Under the pieces are notes generated by a model. It did no database searches, was not told the DNA's origin, and was given only the letters and a program-made list of their open reading frames with translations. Shown in pieces: positions 2,074-12,383 of a stretch of DNA of 32,000 nt. The position numbers and the translations under genes were made by a program. Within the stretch, counting starts at the first letter, position 1, and each line of letters begins with the position of its first letter. The stretch comes from Candidatus Saccharimonadota bacterium (GTDB taxonomy: Bacteria; Patescibacteriota; Gracilibacteria; UBA1369; 2-02-FULL-48-14). The DNA is taken from assembly GCA_965230905.1 (NCBI GenBank), contig OZ246396.1, forward strand, positions 30,001-62,000. Reading direction: 5' to 3'.

Positions 2074-2655
2074 CGCGCGTTCGATCCTAAGGTCCAAGCT
2101 ATTGAGACTCAGTCCTACGTCAAAGTTTTCCAGGTCACACCCTCCCTGAACATAAACATCCAGGCGATCCAGTCCCTCTTGTTTATCATTACACATCGTA
2201 TGTATTGCACAAAATAGCTCTCCATCGTCGTGCGTGTACACATACAAGCCCGCAACACATTCATTATCCTCAAAAGTAAAATGGCTGTGGGGCCCTGGAG
2301 CTGCTAGCATATTCTTAGAATCATGGACCTCTCCATCTCCCCAATGGAAATCTGGACAAAAGGCAAAGGACTCCACCGCCTTTACAGCACCCCATCCCTG
2401 GGCTTTACCTAGATACACATTGAGTTTGCGAGTCAGCTCTTCGCCTAATTGATCACAAGAGGTATTGAGATTGTATCCAACTCCATCTCGCTCAAAAACA
2501 CAGCGCGTCTCATAGCGGATTCGTTCTGTCTGCTCTTCCACAGCTCTTTTAGCAAGCCCTTCAGATTCCTCCTGACAGTTCTTTAGGATAGCTGCACTGG
2601 CTATGGAGGTGCCTAAAATCCACTTGATCCCTACGCTTTGAAGATTTGAATTCAT
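2065..2655 (-). CDS. hypothetical Cys-rich secreted or membrane-anchored protein
   Basis: ORF 2065-2676, with the start moved to ATG 2655 (MNSNLQSVGIKWILGTSIASAAIL, a signal or anchor). About 10 Cys. No family recognised. Confidence 0.5.
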   Translation of the reverse strand: MNSNLQSVGIKWILGTSIASAAILKNCQEESEGLAKRAVEEQTERIRYETRCVFERDGVGYNLNTSCDQLGEELTRKLNVYLGKAQGWGAVKAVESFAFCPDFHWGDGEVHDSKNMLAAPGPHSHFTFEDNECVAGLYVYTHDDGELFCAIHTMCNDKQEGLDRLDVYVQGGCDLENFDVGLSLNSLDLRIERAKK

Positions 2656-2749
2656 GTGATTACCTGGATTATACAACTTTTAGAGTTTCCATCAAGTACT
2701 TCGGGGAGCTTACGTGTGTTTTTGCCATTCTTTTAGCTAAGATGCGCTT

Positions 2750-3190
2750 ATGCACGTTCGCATCCAAAGAATCGACAAGAGCCTGCCCCTGCCCGTTTAT
2801 GAAACGGCGGGAAGCGTGGGGTTTGATCTGGTGGCGAGGGAAACGGTCACCATTGAAGCGGGTAAAATTGAGCTGATCCCAGGGAATGTGATTGTAGAGG
2901 TGCCAGCGGGCTACATGCTGGCGGTGGCTTCGCGTAGCAGCACGCCAAAAAAGAAGGGGCTCACTCCCCCGCACGGCTTTGGCATCATTGACCACGATTA
3001 CTGCGGGCCCACCGATGAGATTAAAATTCAGGTTTATAACTTTTCGGAAGCGCCCGTGACCATTGAACGCGGCGAAAAAATTGCCCAAGGTGTGTTTGTG
3101 CGAGTGGACAAGTTCGAGTGGCAGGAAGTGGAGAGCATTCGCGAAGAAAGTCGGGGCGGGTTTGGGAGCACGGATACTAACGGCGCGTAA
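2750..3190 (+). CDS. dut: dUTP diphosphatase (dUTPase/dCTP deaminase superfamily)
   Basis: 146 aa. YETAGSVGFDL, GIIDHDYCG, the IAQGVF core and the C-terminal RGGFGSTD motif are present. Confidence 0.85.
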   Translation: MHVRIQRIDKSLPLPVYETAGSVGFDLVARETVTIEAGKIELIPGNVIVEVPAGYMLAVASRSSTPKKKGLTPPHGFGIIDHDYCGPTDEIKIQVYNFSEAPVTIERGEKIAQGVFVRVDKFEWQEVESIREESRGGFGSTDTNGA

Positions 3191-3911: not shown

Positions 3912-3994
3912 ATATAAATATAGATAGAAGCATATCCCAAGATATTTAAGTATGCAATCTTGTGGAAGCGAGTAAAAGACTTTACACTTGTGGC

Positions 3995-4588
3995 ATGTTC
4001 ATTACTCTGTACGGAATCAATAATATTGGGAAAAGCACACAGGCCAAGCGGCTGGTGGACCGGCTCAAGGCGGAGGGGCGAGATGCGGTGTACGTGAAAT
4101 TTCCAGTTTATGATGTGGAGCCCACGGGGCGCTATTTGAATGAATTTTTACGGAGCGGCGGAGCGCAGAGCATCACGGAGCAAGAATTGCAGATGTGGTT
4201 CACTTTGAATCGTTATCAATTTCAGCCCACGCTGCAGGAATGGCTGGCGGAGGGGAAAATTGTGGTGGCCGAGGATTACACGGGAACCGGGCTCGCCTGG
4301 GGAACGGTGAAAGGCGCGTCGACCGAGTGGCTCGAAACCTTGAACGATGGACTGGTTAAGGAGGATTTGGCGATTTTGTTGGATGGGGAGCGCTTTGGGC
4401 ATGCAGCCGAAAAAGAGCATATTCACGAAAGCAACGATGCGTTCATGAACCGGTCACGGCAGGTTCATTTGGAACTTGGGGAGCGGTACGGCTGGGTGAA
4501 AGTGCCCGTGCTTGGAAATGCAGAGGAAGTGGAGGAAAGAGTGTGGTCGGTGGTTTCCAGTTCTTTTCCGTTGCAAGCTAGGAGCTGA
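3995..4588 (+). CDS. tmk: thymidylate (dTMP) kinase-like P-loop kinase
   Basis: Start moved to ATG 3995. MFITLYGINNIGKST contains the P-loop GxxxxGKS. Length and layout fit Tmk-type kinases, and dut lies nearby. Confidence 0.7.
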   Translation: MFITLYGINNIGKSTQAKRLVDRLKAEGRDAVYVKFPVYDVEPTGRYLNEFLRSGGAQSITEQELQMWFTLNRYQFQPTLQEWLAEGKIVVAEDYTGTGLAWGTVKGASTEWLETLNDGLVKEDLAILLDGERFGHAAEKEHIHESNDAFMNRSRQVHLELGERYGWVKVPVLGNAEEVEERVWSVVSSSFPLQARS

Positions 4589-4932
4589 GCCTGGAGGTAC
4601 TCGTCTAAAAGTTTTTCGTGAAAAGCTCTTAAGCTTGCTAAGAAGATCTCCACTTCTGGATCTTTTAAATGGCAGGTTCCATCTAAAAAAGCTCCAGTGT
4701 TGTTTATCGTGGGCTGGAGGAGAGGCTGGACCGGGGTCGAGACTTTCATGACTTCCTTAAGTTCTTCATGAGTTTCTTCCTGAGTGACAAGTAATTCGCT
4801 AGGTACAGGTACAGGCACAGGTTCTGGTTCGGGAGCACTGTGATTTTCATCATAAGCATTTTTCGCCAAGACAAACGCTCCAACAAAACCAAGAGCCATT
4901 AGTTTTAACTGCACTGCTGATCCATTTTCCAT
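4465..4932 (-). CDS. hypothetical single-pass membrane protein with a PEPEPVPVPVP linker
   Basis: ORF 4465-4959, with ATG 4932 as the likely start. LKLMALGFVGAFVLA is a TM helix. No other ORF explains 4589-4930. The 3' 124 nt overlap tmk. Confidence 0.45.
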   Translation of the reverse strand: MENGSAVQLKLMALGFVGAFVLAKNAYDENHSAPEPEPVPVPVPSELLVTQEETHEELKEVMKVSTPVQPLLQPTINNTGAFLDGTCHLKDPEVEIFLASLRAFHEKLLDEYLQAQLLACNGKELETTDHTLSSTSSAFPSTGTFTQPYRSPSSK

Positions 4933-4942
4933 GCTTCGATTG

Positions 4943-4971
4943 TTGATTAGTGGTCGCATACAGCTTAGAAT
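4943..4971 (+). promoter_or_regulatory. candidate sigma70-type promoter for folD-purF-purD
   Basis: TTGATT (4943-4948), a 17-nt spacer, then TAGAAT (4966-4971), 22 nt upstream of the folD ATG. Confidence 0.35.
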
Positions 4972-4993
4972 AGAGCCCTCTTATAAAAAATCA

Positions 4994-5851
4994 ATGGCTC
5001 AAGTGCTCGATGGACGCGTGGTTTCTGACTCTCTGCTCGCTGAGGTGAGCGCTGAAATTGAGATGCTAAAAGCGAAAGGGATTGAGCCAAAATTGGTGGT
5101 GATTGTGGTGGGAGACGATCCGGCTAGTCAGGTTTACGTGGGTAAAAAAGAAGAAGCGTGTAAAAAAGTAGGCATGCTCAGCGAACGAGTGGTCCTGCCA
5201 GCTACGGCGACGCAGGGTCAGCTTTTGGAGAAAATCGAGGAATTGAATAAAGATGCTTCAGTAACGGGGATGATTGTGCAACTCCCCCTCCCTGATGGGA
5301 TGGAGGCGCCGGTGGTGATTAAAGCGATTGATCCGTACAAAGACGTGGATGGATTCCATGCCTACAACGTGGGGAAAATGTTTTTGAGCAAAGATTTTGA
5401 GGATTTGGCGCCGTGCACACCCAAGGGAATCACTAAGATTTTGGACTTTTATAAGATTGATGTGAAGGGCATGGACTGCGTGGTGATTGGCCGCAGCAAC
5501 ATTGTGGGCAAACCCATGACGGCGATGCTTCTCAACCGAGATGCCACCGTGACCTGCTGCCACAGCCGAACAAAAAACTTACTCAAGTATACGAGGGAGG
5601 CGGATTTGGTGGTGGTGGCCGTTGGTAAGGCGAGATTTTTGACAGCGGATATGGTTAAAGAGGGTGCGATTGTGATTGATGTGGGAATGCACCGCGGTGA
5701 GGATGGAAAACTCTGCGGAGATGCGGATTTGGAAGGTATGAAGGAAAAAGTTTCGGCGTACACTCCCGTGCCTGGCGGCGTGGGGCCCATGACCGTGGCC
5801 TGCCTTCTGATGAACACCGTGACAGCGGCGAAGAAACAAGCTAAACTCTAA
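4994..5851 (+). CDS. folD: bifunctional methylenetetrahydrofolate dehydrogenase/cyclohydrolase
   Basis: Start moved to ATG 4994 (MAQVLDGR...). VGDDPASQVYVGKK, VQLPLP, CTPKG, GRSNIVGKP and PVPGGVGPMT are FolD hallmarks. Confidence 0.95.
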   Translation: MAQVLDGRVVSDSLLAEVSAEIEMLKAKGIEPKLVVIVVGDDPASQVYVGKKEEACKKVGMLSERVVLPATATQGQLLEKIEELNKDASVTGMIVQLPLPDGMEAPVVIKAIDPYKDVDGFHAYNVGKMFLSKDFEDLAPCTPKGITKILDFYKIDVKGMDCVVIGRSNIVGKPMTAMLLNRDATVTCCHSRTKNLLKYTREADLVVVAVGKARFLTADMVKEGAIVIDVGMHRGEDGKLCGDADLEGMKEKVSAYTPVPGGVGPMTVACLLMNTVTAAKKQAKL

Positions 5852-5871
5852 TCTCTTTTCCCTCGGAAAAT

Positions 5872-7389
5872 ATGTGCGGAATCATCGGTATTCACTCCAA
5901 CTCCCCCGTCGCGCAAGAACTGTATGACGGACTCATGATGCTTCAACATCGTGGACAGGATGCGGCTGGAATGGCGACTTGTGAAGGAGAGCACATGCAC
6001 ATTAAAAAAGGCGATGGACTAGCGAGCGATGTATTTAAGGTAGAAGATTTGGAGAGGCTGAGTGGACGAACGGGAATGGCGCACGTGCGTTACCCCACCG
6101 CCGGAACTTATAGCAGCGCCGAGGCGCATCCTTTTTATGTAAACTCCCCTTTTGGGATCGCCCTGATTCACAATGGAAATTTGACGAATACGGCGGCGCT
6201 GCGCAAGGAAGTTATCGAACAAAATCATCGGCACCTCAATACAAGTTCCGACTCGGAAGTGCTGCTCAATGTACTTGCACATGAAATTGGCGAACTCGAA
6301 ACCCGCACTTTGACACCGGAAGATATTTTTAAGGCGATGGAGCAAGTTTATAAACGAGTGAAGGGTGCCTATGCCGTTATTGCACTCATTTCTGGACATG
6401 GGCTTTTGGCTTTTCGTGACCCGAACGCTATTCGGCCACTGATTATGGGAACACGACATGATGACCTCTACACGGATACTATTTTTGCGTCCGAGAGCGT
6501 GGCACTAGATGTGCTGGGCTATGACATAGTGCGTGATGTGAAGCCGGGTGAAGTGGTTTTTGTGGACATGCAAGGTCAGGTGCACAACAAGATTTGTGCC
6601 GAGAAACCTGTGTACACGCCGTGTATTTTTGAATACGTGTATTTTGCCCGTCCTGATTCTTTGATCGACGATATTTCCGTATACAAAACTCGTCTGCGCA
6701 TGGGAGAAAAACTCGCCAAGAAAATCAAAGCCGCGAACTTGGAAATTGATGTGGTGATGCCGGTGCCCAGCACATCGCGTCACTCCGCCGTTCCACTGGC
6801 GTATGAGCTTGGCGTGAAATACCGAGAGGGACTGGTGAAGAACCGTTATGTAGGGCGCACCTTTATTATGCCTGGGCAAGCTAAGCGACAAACCTCTATT
6901 CGACGGAAATTGAATCCGATTAAACTCGAAATTGAGGGGAAGAACGTGCTACTCGTGGATGACTCAATTGTGCGTGGGAACACTTCGCGCAAGATTGTTG
7001 AAATGGTGAGACAAATGGGCGCAAAGAAAGTTTACTTCGCTTCTTGTGCGGCTCCCCTTCGTCACCCTTGTGTGTATGGAATCGACATGCCCTCGCGCAA
7101 AGAGTTTGTGGCAAACAATTTAACCGTGGAAGAAACGGCTCGATCGCTGGGTGCGGATGGACTTTTCTACCAAGATCTCGATGATTTAGCGGAAGCCGTG
7201 CGTGAAGGGAATCCTGACATTGAACGTTTTTGTATGGCTTGTTTTGACGGCAAATACCCCACGGCTGATGTGACGGAAGAAGTTTTGCTTGCCGCAGAAG
7301 AAAGCCGCAGCGACGTTTACAAGGAAATTCGTAAGAAGGCAGAGCACGAAGAAGACGAGCAACAGCAGAACCAAATCCCCCTTATTTAA
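5872..7389 (+). CDS. purF: amidophosphoribosyltransferase
   Basis: The MCGIIG N-terminal nucleophile, RGQDAAG, and the PRTase motif VLLVDDSIVRGNTS are present. Confidence 0.95.
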   Translation: MCGIIGIHSNSPVAQELYDGLMMLQHRGQDAAGMATCEGEHMHIKKGDGLASDVFKVEDLERLSGRTGMAHVRYPTAGTYSSAEAHPFYVNSPFGIALIHNGNLTNTAALRKEVIEQNHRHLNTSSDSEVLLNVLAHEIGELETRTLTPEDIFKAMEQVYKRVKGAYAVIALISGHGLLAFRDPNAIRPLIMGTRHDDLYTDTIFASESVALDVLGYDIVRDVKPGEVVFVDMQGQVHNKICAEKPVYTPCIFEYVYFARPDSLIDDISVYKTRLRMGEKLAKKIKAANLEIDVVMPVPSTSRHSAVPLAYELGVKYREGLVKNRYVGRTFIMPGQAKRQTSIRRKLNPIKLEIEGKNVLLVDDSIVRGNTSRKIVEMVRQMGAKKVYFASCAAPLRHPCVYGIDMPSRKEFVANNLTVEETARSLGADGLFYQDLDDLAEAVREGNPDIERFCMACFDGKYPTADVTEEVLLAAEESRSDVYKEIRKKAEHEEDEQQQNQIPLI

Positions 7390-8708
7390 TGAAACGAATT
7401 TTGCTCATCGGCAACGGCGCACGCGAACACGTGATCGCCGAGACTTTGAAGCGCAGCCCGCAAGGCTGCATACTGGGCGTGTTTGCCAGTGCGGTGAATC
7501 CAGGCATTAAACCTATGGCGGCTTCGTATCACGTAACGGATTCGCTCTTGAATTTTGAGGCGCTGAAAACGTTTGCGAGCGAATTTAAACCTGACTTTGC
7601 TTTCATTGGACCGGACGACCCGCTCGGGGCCGGCGCCGCAGATGCTTTATTGGAAGTGGGCGTTGCGAGCGTGGGACCTTTGAAAGTTTTGGCGCAACTC
7701 GAAAGTTCAAAGGCATTCACGCGCGATTTGGTAAAAAAATATGGCATCGCAGGGAATCCACAGTTCCGCGTGTTCACTTCGGAAGAAGGCCTGCGTGAAT
7801 ACATGGAAGAACTCGGCGAATATGTGGTGAAAGCAGACGGGCTCATGGGCGGAAAGGGCGTACAGGTTTCTGGGGAACATTTGAAAACGTACGAAGAAGG
7901 CGTGGCCTTTGCAAAAGAGGGCATCGCGAAATTTGGCCGAGTGGTGGTGGAAGAAAAATTTGTAGGTGAGGAGTTTTCTCTCATGAGTTTTGTGGATGGC
8001 ACTCATGTGGTGGAAATGCCTGCAGTGCAGGATCACAAGCGCGCGTTTGAAGGCGACACCGGACCCAACACAGGCGGTATGGGAACTTACAGCGATGCGA
8101 ATGGCTCACTTCCCTTTTTGCAGGCGAGCGATATTGCTGCGGCACATGAGATCACGGTAGCCGTTGCGAAAGCTTTGCTGGAAGAAACTGGCAAACCCTA
8201 CAAAGGAATAATGTACGGCGGCTTCATTGCCACAAAGAACGGTGTGAAGCTGATTGAATACAACGCACGTTTTGGTGACCCTGAGGCAATGAACGTATTG
8301 CCACTTCTAAAGACGGATTTTGTTGCCGTGTGTGAAGCGATTATTGCCGGCACGCTCGACCAAGTGCCTGTGGAATTCGAACAAAAAGCTACCGTGGTGA
8401 AATACGTGGTGCCGGAAGGTTACCCTACTGAGCCGCGCAAGGGTGAAAAGATTGAAGTCGGTGCCGTGCCAACTGGAGTGCGAGCTTATTATGCCTCTGT
8501 GAATCAAAAAGAGGATGGCCTGTACCTGTCTGGTTCACGAGCGGTGGCGTTTGTGGGAATTGGTGAAAGTTTGGCGGAGGCCGAGGCGGCTGCGCAAAGT
8601 GGCGTGAGCCTTGTGACGGGGCCAGTGTTTTACCGCAAAGATATTGGAACCGAGGAGCTCATTCAAAAACGAGTGGAGCATATGAAAACGCTGAGAGACA
8701 CTTTATAA
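7389..8708 (+). CDS. purD: phosphoribosylamine-glycine ligase
   Basis: MKRILLIGNGAREH, the ATP-grasp core, and EYNARFGDPE are present. The start overlaps the purF stop (TAATG). Confidence 0.95.
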   Translation: MKRILLIGNGAREHVIAETLKRSPQGCILGVFASAVNPGIKPMAASYHVTDSLLNFEALKTFASEFKPDFAFIGPDDPLGAGAADALLEVGVASVGPLKVLAQLESSKAFTRDLVKKYGIAGNPQFRVFTSEEGLREYMEELGEYVVKADGLMGGKGVQVSGEHLKTYEEGVAFAKEGIAKFGRVVVEEKFVGEEFSLMSFVDGTHVVEMPAVQDHKRAFEGDTGPNTGGMGTYSDANGSLPFLQASDIAAAHEITVAVAKALLEETGKPYKGIMYGGFIATKNGVKLIEYNARFGDPEAMNVLPLLKTDFVAVCEAIIAGTLDQVPVEFEQKATVVKYVVPEGYPTEPRKGEKIEVGAVPTGVRAYYASVNQKEDGLYLSGSRAVAFVGIGESLAEAEAAAQSGVSLVTGPVFYRKDIGTEELIQKRVEHMKTLRDTL

Positions 8709-8711
8709 GTA

Positions 8712-9512
8712 TCAGCTTATTTTCTCTAAGATGTAAGCTTGTTCGTCAAACGGAGCCCTTTCTTTTTCTGGAAAGTCTATCTCTCTAAAATTTGCCTGAA
8801 ATTTATCCTTCTTTAAGACAGTCAAAACCTCCGAGTTGACTCCAAAAACCATAGATCCCACCCCAAGGGCACGATTTATTTCAACAGCTAGTTGGTGATG
8901 ATATCTAGAGCTACGAAGCACCCACGTATCAAAGCCGTTCACTCCAATATGGACCGGACTGCCATCGGGAATTCTTGATAGTGCTTCCAAATTATCTGCC
9001 TTAACATGAATCACCCTTCTCCCATCCCCTTCTCGGCGAGGATAAAATTGTTCATGACCGTTGTATCGCAATGGCTTGAAAAGTTCTGACTGTCGATCTT
9101 CAGTCCATGTATTTCTATTTTCACCAAGGTAACGAAACAGATCCACACCAATCAAAATGCGAGCCCTAGCACTCTCACCAATTGATTTTGTTCCCGTTGA
9201 GATTGGACCGCTGCTCAAGTCTATAAGCACGCCTCCTTCTATTTTCTCAATAAGGTACTGTAAGGCAGGTGGAAGTTTATCTCTTTCCTTTCGAACCTGT
9301 TTACCTTTTTCGTTATCCCAATCAATACCGAGGTGTCTTATCCATTCATTCCCATATTCTGAGTCTAAAGCACTCGAATCTCTTGCAAGTTCACACGTCG
9401 CCTTATGAACTGAATCTTTTGTTTCTTTAGAGACCAAACCAAGTTCTCGAGAAAAAATTTCCGCAAGAATAGAAGCGTTTTCTTTATCAAAATCTTTGAG
9501 ATTTTCTGACAT
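8712..9512 (-). CDS. hypothetical protein, possibly a degenerate class I methyltransferase-like fold
   Basis: 266-aa ORF in an AT-rich patch. GGVLIDLSSGP...ARILIGVDL...IHVKADNLEALSRIPDGSPVHIGVNGFD loosely follows SAM-MTase motif order I, II and post-II, but the glycine loop is degenerate. Confidence 0.5.
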   Translation of the reverse strand: MSENLKDFDKENASILAEIFSRELGLVSKETKDSVHKATCELARDSSALDSEYGNEWIRHLGIDWDNEKGKQVRKERDKLPPALQYLIEKIEGGVLIDLSSGPISTGTKSIGESARARILIGVDLFRYLGENRNTWTEDRQSELFKPLRYNGHEQFYPRREGDGRRVIHVKADNLEALSRIPDGSPVHIGVNGFDTWVLRSSRYHHQLAVEINRALGVGSMVFGVNSEVLTVLKKDKFQANFREIDFPEKERAPFDEQAYILEKIS

Positions 9513-9524
9513 AATGGGACTTGA

Positions 9525-10214
9525 TTAAGAAATTCGACTGAGCTTATCGTCGATGCAGTGGAAGCCTCGAACAACGGCACCATCGGTCCACTTTGGGAAA
9601 GCGGGTTGTTCCACAAGACAGTTGCGGACAATACTAGCGCCGCTGGTATAAATAAATTGTGATGGAATTGCACTACTCGCCCCAACCTGGATAAAAAAAT
9701 CTACCGAGCTCACGGGACCGGACTTCAAAGCTTCCCGAGCGGCCAAATCGATGTAGGCAGCCGCTAAACCTTTACAGATAGCCCGCCCCCCTTCTTTGTA
9801 AGCGGCACACACTCCTGCTTCGGTCAAAACCTCATTTTTATGCAGATTCATACTGTGTTCCACCAGTGTTCTTTCGGGAATCACTTTTAAGACACTGGAG
9901 TTCAGATTGTGCCTAGCCAAAGTTTCCATAATTGGAGCTCTTACGGGAGCGATCAAATCTTCCACATTCAGGATATCGGCATTTTCCCTTCGGCCTGTGA
10001 GCACTCGTTTACCTCCAATGTGATCGATTGCCGTAAACAGATGGGCGGGCAAACCTTGCTCGATCACTTGCTTGTAGACCTCACACGCTCGATTCAAAGC
10101 CTCTTCCTGAAAATCAAAGTTTTTTATTTTTCCGCCATTGTGGCCTTTTTTTGACTCTGTGAGGGCCTTATGGTTTCCTCCAAGGATGACGATGGAAGGC
10201 TTTAGACTGTTCAT
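9525..10214 (-). CDS. hypothetical protein
   Basis: ORF 9525-10238, with ATG 10214 as the likely start (MNSLKPSIVILGG...). It lies 12 nt upstream of the 8712-9512 gene on the same strand. No family recognised. Confidence 0.5.
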   Translation of the reverse strand: MNSLKPSIVILGGNHKALTESKKGHNGGKIKNFDFQEEALNRACEVYKQVIEQGLPAHLFTAIDHIGGKRVLTGRRENADILNVEDLIAPVRAPIMETLARHNLNSSVLKVIPERTLVEHSMNLHKNEVLTEAGVCAAYKEGGRAICKGLAAAYIDLAAREALKSGPVSSVDFFIQVGASSAIPSQFIYTSGASIVRNCLVEQPAFPKWTDGAVVRGFHCIDDKLSRIS

Positions 10215-10279
10215 AAGAGAGGTTATTGAACAGTGCAATATTACTGCTTATTGTCAAATATGTCAGTAAGACTAGCTTC

Positions 10280-10308
10280 TGGACAGTCATTCAAATCTGT
10301 TATATACT
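10280..10308 (+). promoter_or_regulatory. candidate promoter of the TrmB-like regulator gene
   Basis: TGGACA (10280-10285), a 17-nt spacer, then TATACT (10303-10308), 21 nt upstream of ATG 10330. Confidence 0.35.
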
Positions 10309-10318
10309 GTTGTCAGTA
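10305..10318. promoter_or_regulatory. palindromic operator-like site TACTG-N4-CAGTA
   Basis: tactgttgtcagta overlaps the -10 element and the expected TSS. A second TACTG...CAGTA pair lies at 10242-10246 and 10264-10268 in the same divergent intergenic region. Confidence 0.3.
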
Positions 10319-10329
10319 CTATTAGCTCT

Positions 10330-11094
10330 ATGGACCTTCCCAAGATTCTTCAAGGCATCGGACTCAGCGAAAAGGAATCTCGTGTGTACCTGGAATTGCT
10401 GAGCCTAAAAGAGGCTCTACCTAGCCAAATTTCCCGAAAAGCGGGTGTGAAGCGACCAACCACCTACTTGATACTGGAACAGCTGGCAAAAAAAGGTCTG
10501 GTGAGCCAGGTGAAGAAAGGTCGTTATGTTTATTTTCAGCCGGTGAATCCACATTCTCTGCTGGAAGATCAGTATGTACGCTTCAATAATCTGGAGAAGG
10601 CCATTCCTGAGCTGCTTTCCTTGCACCAGCAGTTTTCAGTTCAACCACAGGTGTCCTTTTTTCAAGGAAAAGAAGGAATCATACGGATCATGGAAGACAC
10701 GCTCAAAGCCTCCACCGAGTTGCTTTGTTGGGCAGATGTGAGCTTGGCGACTCAAACCCTTTTAAAGGCCTACTACCCCACTTACATTGCAAAAAAAGTG
10801 AAGCGAAAGCTATGGCTACGCGGTATCTTTTCTTACGACAAAGCAGCGCTGGAAGTTAAAACACGCGGAGAGAAGGAACTGCGTGAAGTATATTTAATTC
10901 CGAAAGAAGAGTTTCCATTTAAGAACGAAATCAATATTTACGACGACAAGGTCGCGATAGTTTCCCACGCCGATCAAATGGGAGTGATCATTCAAAATAA
11001 AAACATTGCTGACACACAGCGTTCCATTTTTAATTTCGCGTTTAAGTACGCAAAGCTTGCGGAGGCGGAACTTTTGAACGACCTTGAAAAATAG
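10330..11094 (+). CDS. TrmB-family transcriptional regulator
   Basis: The N-terminal winged HTH LGLSEKESRVYLELLSLKEALPSQISRKAGVKRPTTYLILEQLAKKGLV is typical of TrmB-like regulators. A C-terminal effector-type domain follows. Confidence 0.8.
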   Translation: MDLPKILQGIGLSEKESRVYLELLSLKEALPSQISRKAGVKRPTTYLILEQLAKKGLVSQVKKGRYVYFQPVNPHSLLEDQYVRFNNLEKAIPELLSLHQQFSVQPQVSFFQGKEGIIRIMEDTLKASTELLCWADVSLATQTLLKAYYPTYIAKKVKRKLWLRGIFSYDKAALEVKTRGEKELREVYLIPKEEFPFKNEINIYDDKVAIVSHADQMGVIIQNKNIADTQRSIFNFAFKYAKLAEAELLNDLEK

Positions 11095-11308: not shown

Positions 11309-11339
11309 AAAAAGCCCTTCCATTATGGAGGGGCTTTTT
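11309..11339. terminator. bidirectional rho-independent terminator
   Basis: 10-bp stem 11313-11322 with 11326-11335 (one G.U pair) and a 3-nt loop. An A-run lies upstream and a T-run downstream. It can serve both the tRNA-like gene (+) and the maf-ytxH-DUF1543 operon (-). Confidence 0.6.
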
Positions 11340-11376: not shown

Positions 11377-11904
11377 TCATTTCAGCGGTATATACGCAAT
11401 CGTGAGCACGTTTTCTTTTGGCGTGGCGGAAGGTTTTAGTTCAATGCCCTTCATGGTTTCGCTGACACATAAAACGTCATCAATACCTTCATCGAGGGCG
11501 TGTTTGTCGTCGATGTGCGGCGCCGCGATGGGATCGAGCACGCGCCCTGGCTCTGTGAAGAAGGGGTCTTGTTTGGCTTTGGCTTTGGCGCTTGGTAAGT
11601 CGGGCGCAGTGAGCAGAATGCATTTATGAACTTCGCCGAATTGGCCTTCGCGGTAAGCGCCTAAATTCATGAACCAAAGTTTAAGTTCGGTAGGCATTGG
11701 CGCGGGCGAATGTGTGACACACACTTCGTAGCCGTCGACTTCGTTCACTTCCAAACACGTGTCAATATGCTGGGCGTAGGGGCGGGCGGCTTTGATCAAC
11801 TTAAAAGCCTCTTCTTTCGAAGAGGCAATTGAGAATACCGTGTCATGACCTTCGGTGTTCATCCCTTCCAGGCGAAACCCGATTTGGATCATGTAAAGTT
11901 TCAT
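11377..11904 (-). CDS. DUF1543-like protein (two tandem repeats)
   Basis: 175 aa. MKLYMIQIGFRLEGMNTEGHDTVF and LWFMNLGAYREGQFGEVHKCILL resemble the duplicated DUF1543 pattern (LY..LGG.....ElHD), as recalled from memory. Confidence 0.5.
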   Translation of the reverse strand: MKLYMIQIGFRLEGMNTEGHDTVFSIASSKEEAFKLIKAARPYAQHIDTCLEVNEVDGYEVCVTHSPAPMPTELKLWFMNLGAYREGQFGEVHKCILLTAPDLPSAKAKAKQDPFFTEPGRVLDPIAAPHIDDKHALDEGIDDVLCVSETMKGIELKPSATPKENVLTIAYIPLK

Positions 11905-12383
11905 TTCTTTTTCTTAGGGGAAGTTTTTTTAGCGGCTGGTTTTTTTGCAGCGGGCTTTTTTACAGAAGATTTTTTGGCAGGTTTCTTTGTTGCCTTTTTG
12001 GAAGATTTTTTAGCCATCCGTTCGTCCAAAACTGCCTTTTGTTCTTTAACGTATTTTGCAACGGCTGATTTGAATTCTTCTGCCTTCTGGTTTGCCTTAG
12101 TGAGCATGGCATCCAGTTCGGTTCGCTTCATGTTCGCCACATCCGCTGCCTTGTCTTTGGCTTTGTCTAAAGCTTCCTGCACAGTGGTGCTTTTTGAAAA
12201 ATCTACCACCATATCCTTCATTTCACTCCCCATGCTTTCTAAGTCCTTTAAAAGACCCTTCGCATCGCCTTTTGCGATTTTGCTGCGGAGGTTTTTACCT
12301 TCATCGGGCGCGAATAAAAGTCCTGTGAAAGCTCCGGTAATGAGTCCAAAACCGAGTGCGATTTTACCTGCTTTATGTCCCAT
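11901..12383 (-). CDS. YtxH-like membrane-anchored protein with a lysine-rich histone H1-like tail
   Basis: The N-terminus GKIALGFGLITGAFTGLLFAPDEGKNLR matches the YtxH pattern. The C-terminus is KKSSKKATKKPAKKSSVKKPAAKKPAAKKTSPKKKK. It overlaps the downstream gene by 4 nt. Confidence 0.7.
   Translation of the reverse strand: MGHKAGKIALGFGLITGAFTGLLFAPDEGKNLRSKIAKGDAKGLLKDLESMGSEMKDMVVDFSKSTTVQEALDKAKDKAADVANMKRTELDAMLTKANQKAEEFKSAVAKYVKEQKAVLDERMAKKSSKKATKKPAKKSSVKKPAAKKPAAKKTSPKKKK

Follow-up and report, generated by a model that had tools for sequence, protein, structure and literature searches.

The 32-kb stretch of DNA analysed here (referred to as a whole as the window) carries, between purD and a TrmB-family regulator gene, two ORFs which, with moderate confidence, we assign to two evolutionary units and not to one cassette: the TrmB-like gene and ORF B make up one unit, and ORF A is separate from it. 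Folds, family memberships, the presence/absence pattern, composition and motif conservation were all established computationally. The first-pass annotation of this DNA had described two co-directional ORFs 12 nt apart, and the coordinates bear this out: ORF A (266 aa, as previously given; NCBI tag AAB383_05445) occupies 8712-9512 and ORF B (229 aa; AAB383_05440) 9525-10214, both on the minus strand, with a spacer at 9513-9524 (minus strand) running from the ORF B stop to the ORF A start. The length of 229-237 aa reported for ORF B reflects its ATG start and an alternative TTG start at 10238 (minus strand). The regulator gene (254 aa) lies on the plus strand at 10330-11094, and the 115-nt divergent region that it was said to share with ORF B indeed extends from 10215 to 10329 (unstranded) between both ATGs. 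On the other side, purD (7389-8708, plus strand) is the convergent neighbour, and in related genomes it directly adjoins ORF B.

Position and origin of ORF A

ORF A was absent from the orthologous loci of all three related lineages in which ORF B occurs. At L001-L005 and L007 the TrmB gene, ORF B and purD followed one another in that order, with ORF B and purD overlapping, and at L006 the order was TrmB gene, ORF B and TrmB paralogue; none of these loci contained ORF A. In each of the three lineages ORF B thus adjoins or overlaps its convergent downstream neighbour with no gene between them. Composition also set ORF A apart, with a GC of 0.411, a GC3 of 0.322 and the poorest codon-usage fit of 24 genes, as compared to a GC3 of about 0.37-0.69 (mostly 0.50-0.65) in the other genes checked. 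GC and GC3 were 0.475 and 0.474 for ORF B and 0.447 and 0.498 for the TrmB gene, with values of 0.517 for purD and 0.483 for the window mean. The AT-rich patch earlier attributed to both ORFs is thus a property of ORF A, but not of ORF B, which, like the TrmB gene, is near the window mean.

Because it is absent in three related lineages and low in GC3, ORF A appears to be a recent insertion, placed later between ORF B and purD and probably by horizontal transfer. IMG/VR scans and tblastn searches against a phage collection returned no relatives of ORF A or ORF B, leaving a phage vector without evidence. The relatives of ORF A were scattered singly in varied housekeeping contexts, and nine ORF A-family loci had no neighbouring gene in common, none of them carrying a relative of ORF B.

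These results bear upon an earlier model in which ORF B, ORF A and the TrmB gene constitute one regulated accessory module, with both proteins acting in one pathway, for example as an enzyme and a methyltransferase tailoring its product. The 12-nt gap and the common direction, together with a spacer (9513-9524) in which no terminator-like site was found, suggest a single ORF B/ORF A transcript here, such that co-transcription is likely, and the control region would be shared within the putative module. Shine-Dalgarno sequences are uninformative on coupling of the two ORFs, as all 24 of the window's gene starts that were checked lack one. The one-module model is, however, largely refuted by the presence/absence pattern, as ORF A is missing in every other ORF B lineage and the nine loci of its family share no neighbour and include no relative of ORF B; its composition is also unlike that of ORF B. 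The co-occurrence check named in the first-pass annotation gave the same answer, with ORF A and ORF B together in no other lineage examined, and we now give a joint module very little credence. Lying 12 nt behind ORF B, ORF A would probably be read from the ORF B promoter, and the apparent ORF B-ORF A operon is probably an accident of insertion.

Fold and family of ORF A

A Foldseek search of the PDB with the AF2 model of ORF A (pLDDT 84.6) resulted in 78 matches at E<=1e-3, and all 50 of the 50 matches listed were methyltransferases with a probability of 1.0; the predicted fold is confidently that of a class I SAM-methyltransferase, in agreement with the earlier impression of a methyltransferase-like protein with a degenerate glycine loop. 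At the level of sequence, searches of Pfam, NCBIfam, PADLOC and PHROGs gave nothing for ORF A with cutoffs relaxed to E<=1 to 10, no curated methyltransferase model of Pfam or NCBIfam scored above threshold, and a sequence search of the PDB returned only noise. The statement that neither ORF belongs to a nameable family therefore stands as regards Pfam and NCBIfam, but ORF A is no orphan: phmmer against 1.84 billion representatives gave 122 matches at E<=1e-3, which sets a minimum of 122 clusters (50% identity) for a still unnamed family. ORF A scored 148 bits against the leave-one-out family HMM, and most of the family motifs (DLGGG, YInVD, VKADMLDFxSRLPD, INGID, YHxALAxEIxR and FG) were kept in it. 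The family profile matched PRMT1 (E=8e-4), and 8 of 54 family members weakly matched Methyltransf_23, _11 or _25 (best E=1e-4). A narrow-pattern scan of GTDB genomes for the family yielded a single Saccharibacteria locus. The "hypothetical protein" of the annotation can now be described as a class I methyltransferase-fold protein of a definable family, whose clear signature motifs could seed a family model.

The glycine loop is atypical, reading DLSSG compared to DLGGG in the family and DLASG in the nearest relative (P0006). The most conserved glycine of motif I, which is Gly in 51 of the 54 members, is replaced (G100S), a change that could weaken SAM binding, and I194 is changed to F (family NG(I/F)D). 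Together with the foreign composition and the lack of an orthologue in close relatives, these replacements are consistent with a decaying or non-catalytic pseudo-methyltransferase that was acquired by chance and has lost its function. We consider this unlikely, as the 266-codon frame is intact and scores well against its family HMM, and as D98, D124, D173, N192, G193, D195, Y204, E211, R214, F223 and G224 are all kept. D124 (present in 45 of the 54 members) and D173 (51 of 54) would be the ribose-binding and adenine-binding acidic residues, respectively. In addition, P0006 carries Ala where ORF A has Ser, and small residues at the motif I glycine position are tolerated in many class I methyltransferases. 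ORF A is presumed to bind SAM and to be enzymatically active.

The TrmB-like regulator and ORF B

In a small clade of Patescibacteria, ORF B and the regulator are a conserved divergent pair, with divergent adjacency in all four lineages, including L006, in which the other flank is different. With purD 75-82% identical among them, the four lineages that carry ORF B are rather closely related, so the adjacency could be inherited synteny and not functional coupling; L006 is the only case of the pair surviving a rearrangement on its other side. The earlier assignment of the regulator to the TrmB family is confirmed by a PF01978 match of 60.2 bits (E=1.7e-16, cutoff 25.6). The protein, which is 69-90% identical across the four lineages, consists of an N-terminal winged HTH and a very conserved C-terminal domain without a Pfam model, the latter being more conserved than the HTH itself. 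Beyond residue ~133 there was no Pfam or PDB sequence match, and the sugar-binding effector domain of TrmB/TrmBL1 was not detected.

Repeated TACTG/CAGTA half-sites had been noted in the control region, and their abundance is well above expectation, with four pentamers (10242, 10264, 10305 and 10314) against 0.13 expected; this is the sole 115-nt stretch of the window with three or more. Two of them form the palindrome TACTG-N4-CAGTA (TACTGTTGTCAGTA; 10305-10318, plus strand), a candidate operator which overlaps the -10/start region of the predicted TrmB promoter and has no second copy in the window. Three of the four lineages share it, as it is identical and at the same position in L002 and L007 and absent in L006. 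The window contains two copies of the octamer TACTGACA, each of them inside the control region; the distal copy (10261-10268, minus strand) is specific to the window, and neither L002 nor L007 shows conservation of the distal half-sites. Promoter-like sites were recognized for ORF B (-35 CTGACA, 17-nt spacer, -10 TAATAT; 10238-10266, minus strand) and for the TrmB gene (-35 TGGACA, 17-nt spacer, -10 TATACT; 10280-10308, plus strand), although such sites are not enriched (5 compared to 3.3 +/- 1.8 in shuffles) and the promoter rules of the phylum are not established. An ATAATAT block is present in the window, L002 and L007 (ATAATGT in L006), and TTGAC in all four lineages.

We infer that the regulator most likely binds TACTG-N4-CAGTA over its own predicted -10/start region, which would result in autorepression, and it possibly controls ORF B as well, the predicted -35 of which falls within a TACTGACA repeat ~45 nt away. 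The recognition-helix residues G39-V40-K41-R42-P43-T44 and Y46-L47 are identical in L006, where the palindrome is missing, and the operator assignment is for that reason unproven. In L006 a different palindrome, ACCTATATCATAGGT, is placed equally far from the TrmB start; covariation of operator and regulator was rejected, as all four lineages have the same recognition helix.

Only three relatives of ORF B (P0003, P0004 and P0005) were found among 5.8 billion protein clusters, all three divergent beside the same highly conserved TrmB-like gene, making ORF B a four-lineage orphan family. No member of Pfam, NCBIfam, PADLOC or PHROGs matched ORF B, even at E<=1 to 10. PDB sequence searches with P0002, P0005 and the ORF B profile, as with ORF A, gave noise (serpin, kallikrein, CheB at E=0.16 and PAAR toxin at E=0.22), and JGI metagenome scans, automatic or with the degenerate pattern IDH[IK]GGxR[VG]LTG, gave only a chance out-of-frame match on a high-GC contig. 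ORF B evolves far faster than its neighbours, with identities of 60/36/47% as compared to 90/79/70% for TrmB, and the four-member alignment contains 58 invariant columns, among them N14-H15, H25-N26, D64-H65, R70, R76, E114, T116, H120, C147, R160, R197 and C220. Most of these invariant polar residues lie immediately past the predicted strands, in neighbouring loops or at the beginnings of helices. The AF2 model (pLDDT 85.9, pTM 0.87), for which the input was four sequences and the five models spanned pLDDT 68 to 86, is a Rossmann-like three-layer alpha/beta/alpha sandwich, consistent with the first-pass view of a Rossmann-like protein lacking a recognizable nucleotide-binding signature; a fold search of the PDB with this model gave no match at E<=1e-3.

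The predicted model and the invariant residues point to a small enzyme or a ligand-binding protein as the probable identity of ORF B. Given the Rossmann-like fold and the invariant polar residues, the most likely reading would be a soluble enzyme that binds a small molecule or a nucleotide and acts as a hydrolase or as a transferase. More specifically, and only tentatively, ORF B may represent a new clade-restricted enzyme family with a His/Asp/Cys/Arg active site on a Rossmann-like scaffold and no detectable link to described families. In that case, a TrmBL2-like regulator would govern its expression via TACTG-N4-CAGTA, and its rapid divergence would result from these episymbiotic bacteria adapting to their hosts.

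The strict pairing in four of four lineages would also be explained if ORF B were not an enzyme at all, but a partner of the TrmB-like protein with a ligand-sensing or regulatory role, such as an anti-repressor or nucleotide sensor. ORF B sits between two TrmB paralogues at L006, and its weak fold matches include the nucleotide-sensor folds USP and CARF/SAVED. Those matches, however, have probabilities of 0.1-0.5 and TM <0.35, the dense invariant His, Asp, Glu, Cys and Arg are a better fit to catalysis, and conservation is far higher in TrmB than in ORF B, unlike in co-evolving partners, all of which makes a sensor doubtful. Less probable still is that ORF B stands in, as a non-orthologous replacement, for a missing step of purine or nucleotide metabolism. 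ORF B is at the end of a tmk-folD-purF-purD block, that is, in a nucleotide-metabolism neighbourhood, it adjoins purD in three of the four lineages, and several of its invariant Arg could bind phosphate; on the other hand, ORF B and purD are convergent and hence share no operon, the neighbour at L006 is a TrmB paralogue instead of purD, purD evolves much slower than ORF B, and Pfam and PDB searches showed no likeness to PurN, PurT or other purine enzymes. The enzyme reading remains the one that we prefer.

Approximately half of the genes in such genomes are unannotated, and a specialist would therefore not be surprised by these ORFs. ORF B is a very rare, fast-evolving family linked, in a single clade of Patescibacteria, to a TrmB-like regulator of high conservation, and it would bear on a long-standing question only if it proves to have a new activity.

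Relation to known folds and families

Among known folds, ORF B was closest to DUF218/YdcF-like and HUP-class Rossmann-like domains, with a YdcF-family viral model matching at a probability of 0.94 (TM 0.36/0.44) and a 'VIL(A/G)GN' segment after strand 1 in common with YdcF of E. coli. Sequence profiles gave no support for membership in DUF218, as hhalign gave 0.9% against YdcF and 6% against E. coli YdcF/SanA/ElyC/YgjQ, and none of the four ORF B family members matched DUF218 in Pfam at E<=10. The best PDB probabilities were for HUP-class proteins (YcfA 0.63, UspF 0.47 and CysRS 0.41), with weak matches throughout (YcfA E=0.08, TM 0.30-0.34; the PDB maximum was a TM of 0.38 for CysRS); the alignment contains no SGGxDS (PP-loop), HIGH or KMSKS motif, and HUP-class membership was likewise not supported. 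Motif resemblances of ORF B to Pth, isochorismatase, the GATase nucleophile elbow, LmbE, creatininase and PurN were dismissed, as none of these was among its fold and profile matches.

The regulator is similar to TrmBL2 (5bqt, 5bpd and 5box) in its winged HTH and in its length (254 compared to roughly 262 aa). Unlike TrmBL2, it belongs to a Patescibacteria bacterium, and the TrmBL2 structures match its HTH only (residues 11-80, E=3e-4); the NCBIfam TrmB, TrmBL1 and TrmBL2 equivalogs scored 21-34 bits against cutoffs of 500-650.

For ORF A, the best structural matches were MnmM/YtqB (8h0s and 4pon), guanidinoacetate methyltransferase (3orh and 1xcj), MeT1 (6g80), Trm11 and RlmKL, and the best profile match was PRMT1 (8dur). 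ORF A is unlike these class I methyltransferases in its identity of only 11-16%, its DLSSG loop, its failure to reach any Pfam model at threshold, its N-terminal helical region of ~90 aa and its own invariant Y204, E211 and R214. What it has in common with them is the fold (Foldseek E down to 1e-5, TM 0.4 query / 0.6 target) and the order of the motifs, that is, the motif I loop, an acidic residue after beta2, an Asp after beta3 and a motif IV-like NG(I/F)D.

Gene layout and the setting of ORF A

The ORF list confirmed the arrangement described in the first-pass annotation, in which two co-directional ORFs 12 nt apart lie 115 nt from the start of a divergent regulator gene: ORF A (8712-9512, (-) strand, 266 aa), ORF B (9525-10214, (-) strand, 229 aa from its ATG, or 237 aa if a TTG at 10238 is used) and a TrmB-family regulator (10330-11094, (+) strand, 254 aa). 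Both ORFs have identical matches among NCBI hypothetical proteins (AAB383_05445 for ORF A and AAB383_05440 for ORF B) on a 1.3-Mb contig of a Patescibacteria MAG. Upstream of this region lie tmk, folD, purF and purD on the (+) strand, forming a co-directional block (3962-8708); de novo purine genes are frequently absent from Patescibacteria. The purD gene ends at 8708, with the ORF A stop codon three bases further on. Past the TrmB gene, a 282-nt gap carries a terminator-like hairpin at 11315-11332, followed downstream by genes for a DUF1543 protein (11377-11904, (-) strand) and a lysine-rich YtxH-like protein (11901-12383, (-) strand), which overlap by 4 nt. Of 24 gene starts examined across the window (e.g., 1293, 5872, 7389, 9512, 10214, 11904, 19490 and 27632), not one is preceded by a purine-rich Shine-Dalgarno sequence, and several instead have a C/T-rich patch (CCCT, CTCT, TCCCC) 5-14 nt before the ATG.

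The idea that ORF A and ORF B form a conserved pair did not hold, as an ORF A relative is absent from all three metagenomic loci that carry an ORF B relative, an outcome that the first-pass annotation had itself named as refuting the pair. At the junctions, ORF B and purD share a stop region in the relatives that have purD at this place, and it is there that the window has the ~0.8 kb of ORF A. The AT-richness earlier ascribed to the whole patch applies to ORF A (GC 0.411, GC3 0.322), whose codon usage is also deviant, but not to ORF B (GC3 0.474) or the TrmB gene (GC3 0.498), which are ordinary for the window. This absence, the junctions, and the unusual GC3 and codon usage together make recent insertion the best reading of ORF A. 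At nine loci of its family the gene stands alone in different, mostly housekeeping surroundings (YebC-x-RuvC, RNase J-x-RNase J, NusA-x-H+-PPase, beside an ABC transporter, or among hypotheticals), and an all-against-all comparison of neighbors within 4 kb recovered no partner that recurs between loci. One locus, L011, holds two family paralogues side by side (1304-2134 and 2138-3115, both (+) strand). At least one further member comes from a Saccharibacteria MAG, and no relatives were found in phage collections.

Family and predicted fold of ORF A

Scans of Pfam, NCBIfam, PADLOC and PHROGs returned no match for either ORF, in keeping with the first-pass view that neither could be placed in a named family. 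A word-indexed search with ORF A retrieved only ORF A itself; a phmmer search through all 1.84 billion representatives yielded 122 proteins (E<=1e-3), the top match, P0006, being 38% identical (E=1.8e-32). A 54-sequence alignment of the family has the signatures DLGGG, YInVD, VKADMLDFxSRLPD, INGID, YHxALAxEIxR and FG, whose order we read as that of motifs I-IV in the class I SAM methyltransferase superfamily. Generic Pfam methyltransferase models were matched weakly by 8 of the 54 members, and the family profile reached PRMT1 (E=8e-4) in the motif I-II region. The AlphaFold model (pLDDT 84.6, pTM 0.87) gave 78 PDB matches at E<=1e-3, with methyltransferases accounting for 50 of the 50 matches listed, and a family HMM built without ORF A scored it at 148 bits. 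The earlier guess of a methyltransferase is thus upheld at the level of fold by the PDB matches, the motif order and the HMM score, and ORF A can be classed as a protein of class I methyltransferase fold.

ORF B and the divergent TrmB-family gene

Only three ORF B relatives were found among 5.8 billion clusters, profile query included: P0003, P0004 and P0005, with 60, 47 and 36% identity, respectively. Each of the three comes from a short metagenomic contig on which a TrmB gene is divergent upstream and a convergent gene overlaps the ORF B stop; this convergent gene is purD in two lineages and a second TrmB paralogue in L006, where TrmB-family genes flank the ORF B homologue on both sides (351-1136 and 2028-2639, (-) strand), the second matching residues 54-245 of the window regulator at 44% identity. 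Between the window and the three relatives, identity is 90, 79 and 70% for TrmB and 60, 36 and 47% for ORF B, with 82 and 75% for purD. The order of divergence is incongruent: L007 (TrmB 79%, purD 75%, ORF B 36%) is nearer than L006 (TrmB 70%, ORF B 47%) by TrmB and farther by ORF B, which suggests lineage-specific acceleration or relaxed constraint. By these comparisons, ORF B is rare, evolves fast and keeps its pairing with TrmB.

The regulator matches PF01978 at 60.2 bits, in agreement with its initial assignment to the TrmB family. Across four lineages its C-terminal domain (residues ~100-254; 10630-11094) is more conserved than the HTH and nearly invariant, with long runs that include FPFKNEINIYDDKVAI and NIADTQR; no Pfam or PDB sequence match was found for this domain. 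From the identities and this near-invariance, the regulator therefore looks like a core factor of the clade, and ORF B like its variable partner.

In the alignment of the four ORF B sequences, 58 columns are invariant and many of these hold His, Asp, Glu, Cys or Arg, in segments such as GNH(K/R)A, GHNG, IDHxGGxRxLTGxRxN, PExTLxxH and CxGLAxAYxDxAxR, and by this measure ORF B is a real, constrained protein. Its model is a beta-alpha-beta sandwich (pLDDT 85.9, pTM 0.87), built on four sequences only, with five models spanning 68 to 86. Foldseek matched it to no solved structure at E<=1e-3, and the PP-loop, HIGH and KMSKS motifs are all absent. Matches to viral models included an unnamed protein (E=2.5e-4) and a member of the YdcF family (probability 0.94), both at TM ~0.36-0.45. 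Sequence profiles gave the YdcF/DUF218 lead no support: hhalign probabilities were 0.9% against E. coli YdcF and 6% against E. coli YdcF, SanA, ElyC and YgjQ together, and a VIL(A/G)GN segment is all that ORF B has in common with that set. The distribution of ORF B is narrow, and its family is unassigned.

Control region and competing interpretations

The repeated half-sites reported in the 115-nt divergent region are present: four TACTG/CAGTA pentamers occur against 0.13 expected, the sole such cluster in the 32-kb window, and both window copies of the octamer TACTGACA fall inside it. A consensus scan placed promoter-like sites for TrmB (10280-10308, (+) strand; TGGACA, 17-nt spacer, TATACT) and ORF B (10266-10238, (-) strand; CTGACA, 17-nt spacer, TAATAT). 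The palindrome TACTGTTGTCAGTA (10305-10318), unique in the window, overlaps the putative TrmB -10 and start region, a geometry that suggests autorepression. It lies within a 35-36-nt block adjoining the TrmB start that is identical in L002 and differs by one base in L007. Counting against autorepression, L006 lacks the palindrome while its recognition helix is identical, the distal half-sites are peculiar to the window, and the promoter-like sites show no enrichment relative to shuffles. We accordingly treat the palindrome as an operator by hypothesis.

In the composite picture that we hold to be somewhat probable, the TrmB-like protein would bind the promoter-proximal palindrome, controlling its own gene and, with less certainty, ORF B as well; ORF B itself would be a small protein of the cytosol, either an enzyme or a ligand binder, with an active site built from invariant residues after predicted strands; and ORF A would be an independent SAM-dependent methyltransferase that landed downstream of ORF B. 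The two ORFs are probably co-transcribed, since the 12-nt gap between them contains no terminator-like site. The weight of this picture falls mostly on what has been shown, namely folds, families, the insertion and the conserved pairing.

A true three-gene module would fit the compact layout, and it is the least probable alternative given that ORF A is missing at related loci; the first-pass observation was real, but its cassette reading is largely not supported. If ORF B were a partner of TrmB in regulation and not an enzyme, its constant company with TrmB would be expected; the invariant His, Asp, Glu, Cys and Arg positions are what a catalyst would show, and we think the partner role improbable. 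Hardly more credible than the module is ORF B as a purine-pathway substitute, with purD as convergent neighbor in two lineages and a TrmB paralogue in the third. It is similarly doubtful, to about the degree of the partner role, that ORF A is a dead methyltransferase: position 100, Gly in 51 of 54 family members, is Ser in ORF A and Ala in its closest relative, and D98, D124, D173, N192, G193, D195, Y204, E211, R214, F223 and G224 are retained.

The finding carries modest weight, because unannotated genes are very common in Patescibacteria. Among the elements, ORF B alone might prove new; ORF A and the regulator each belong to an already known kind of protein. The ORF A model resembles MnmM/YtqB, GAMT, MeT1, Trm11 and RlmKL (TM ~0.4 by query, ~0.6 by target), the regulator matches TrmBL2 structures in its HTH alone, and the solved folds nearest to ORF B are HUP-type Rossmann-like domains (YcfA, UspF and CysRS, at probabilities of 0.63, 0.47 and 0.41, respectively; TM <=0.38).
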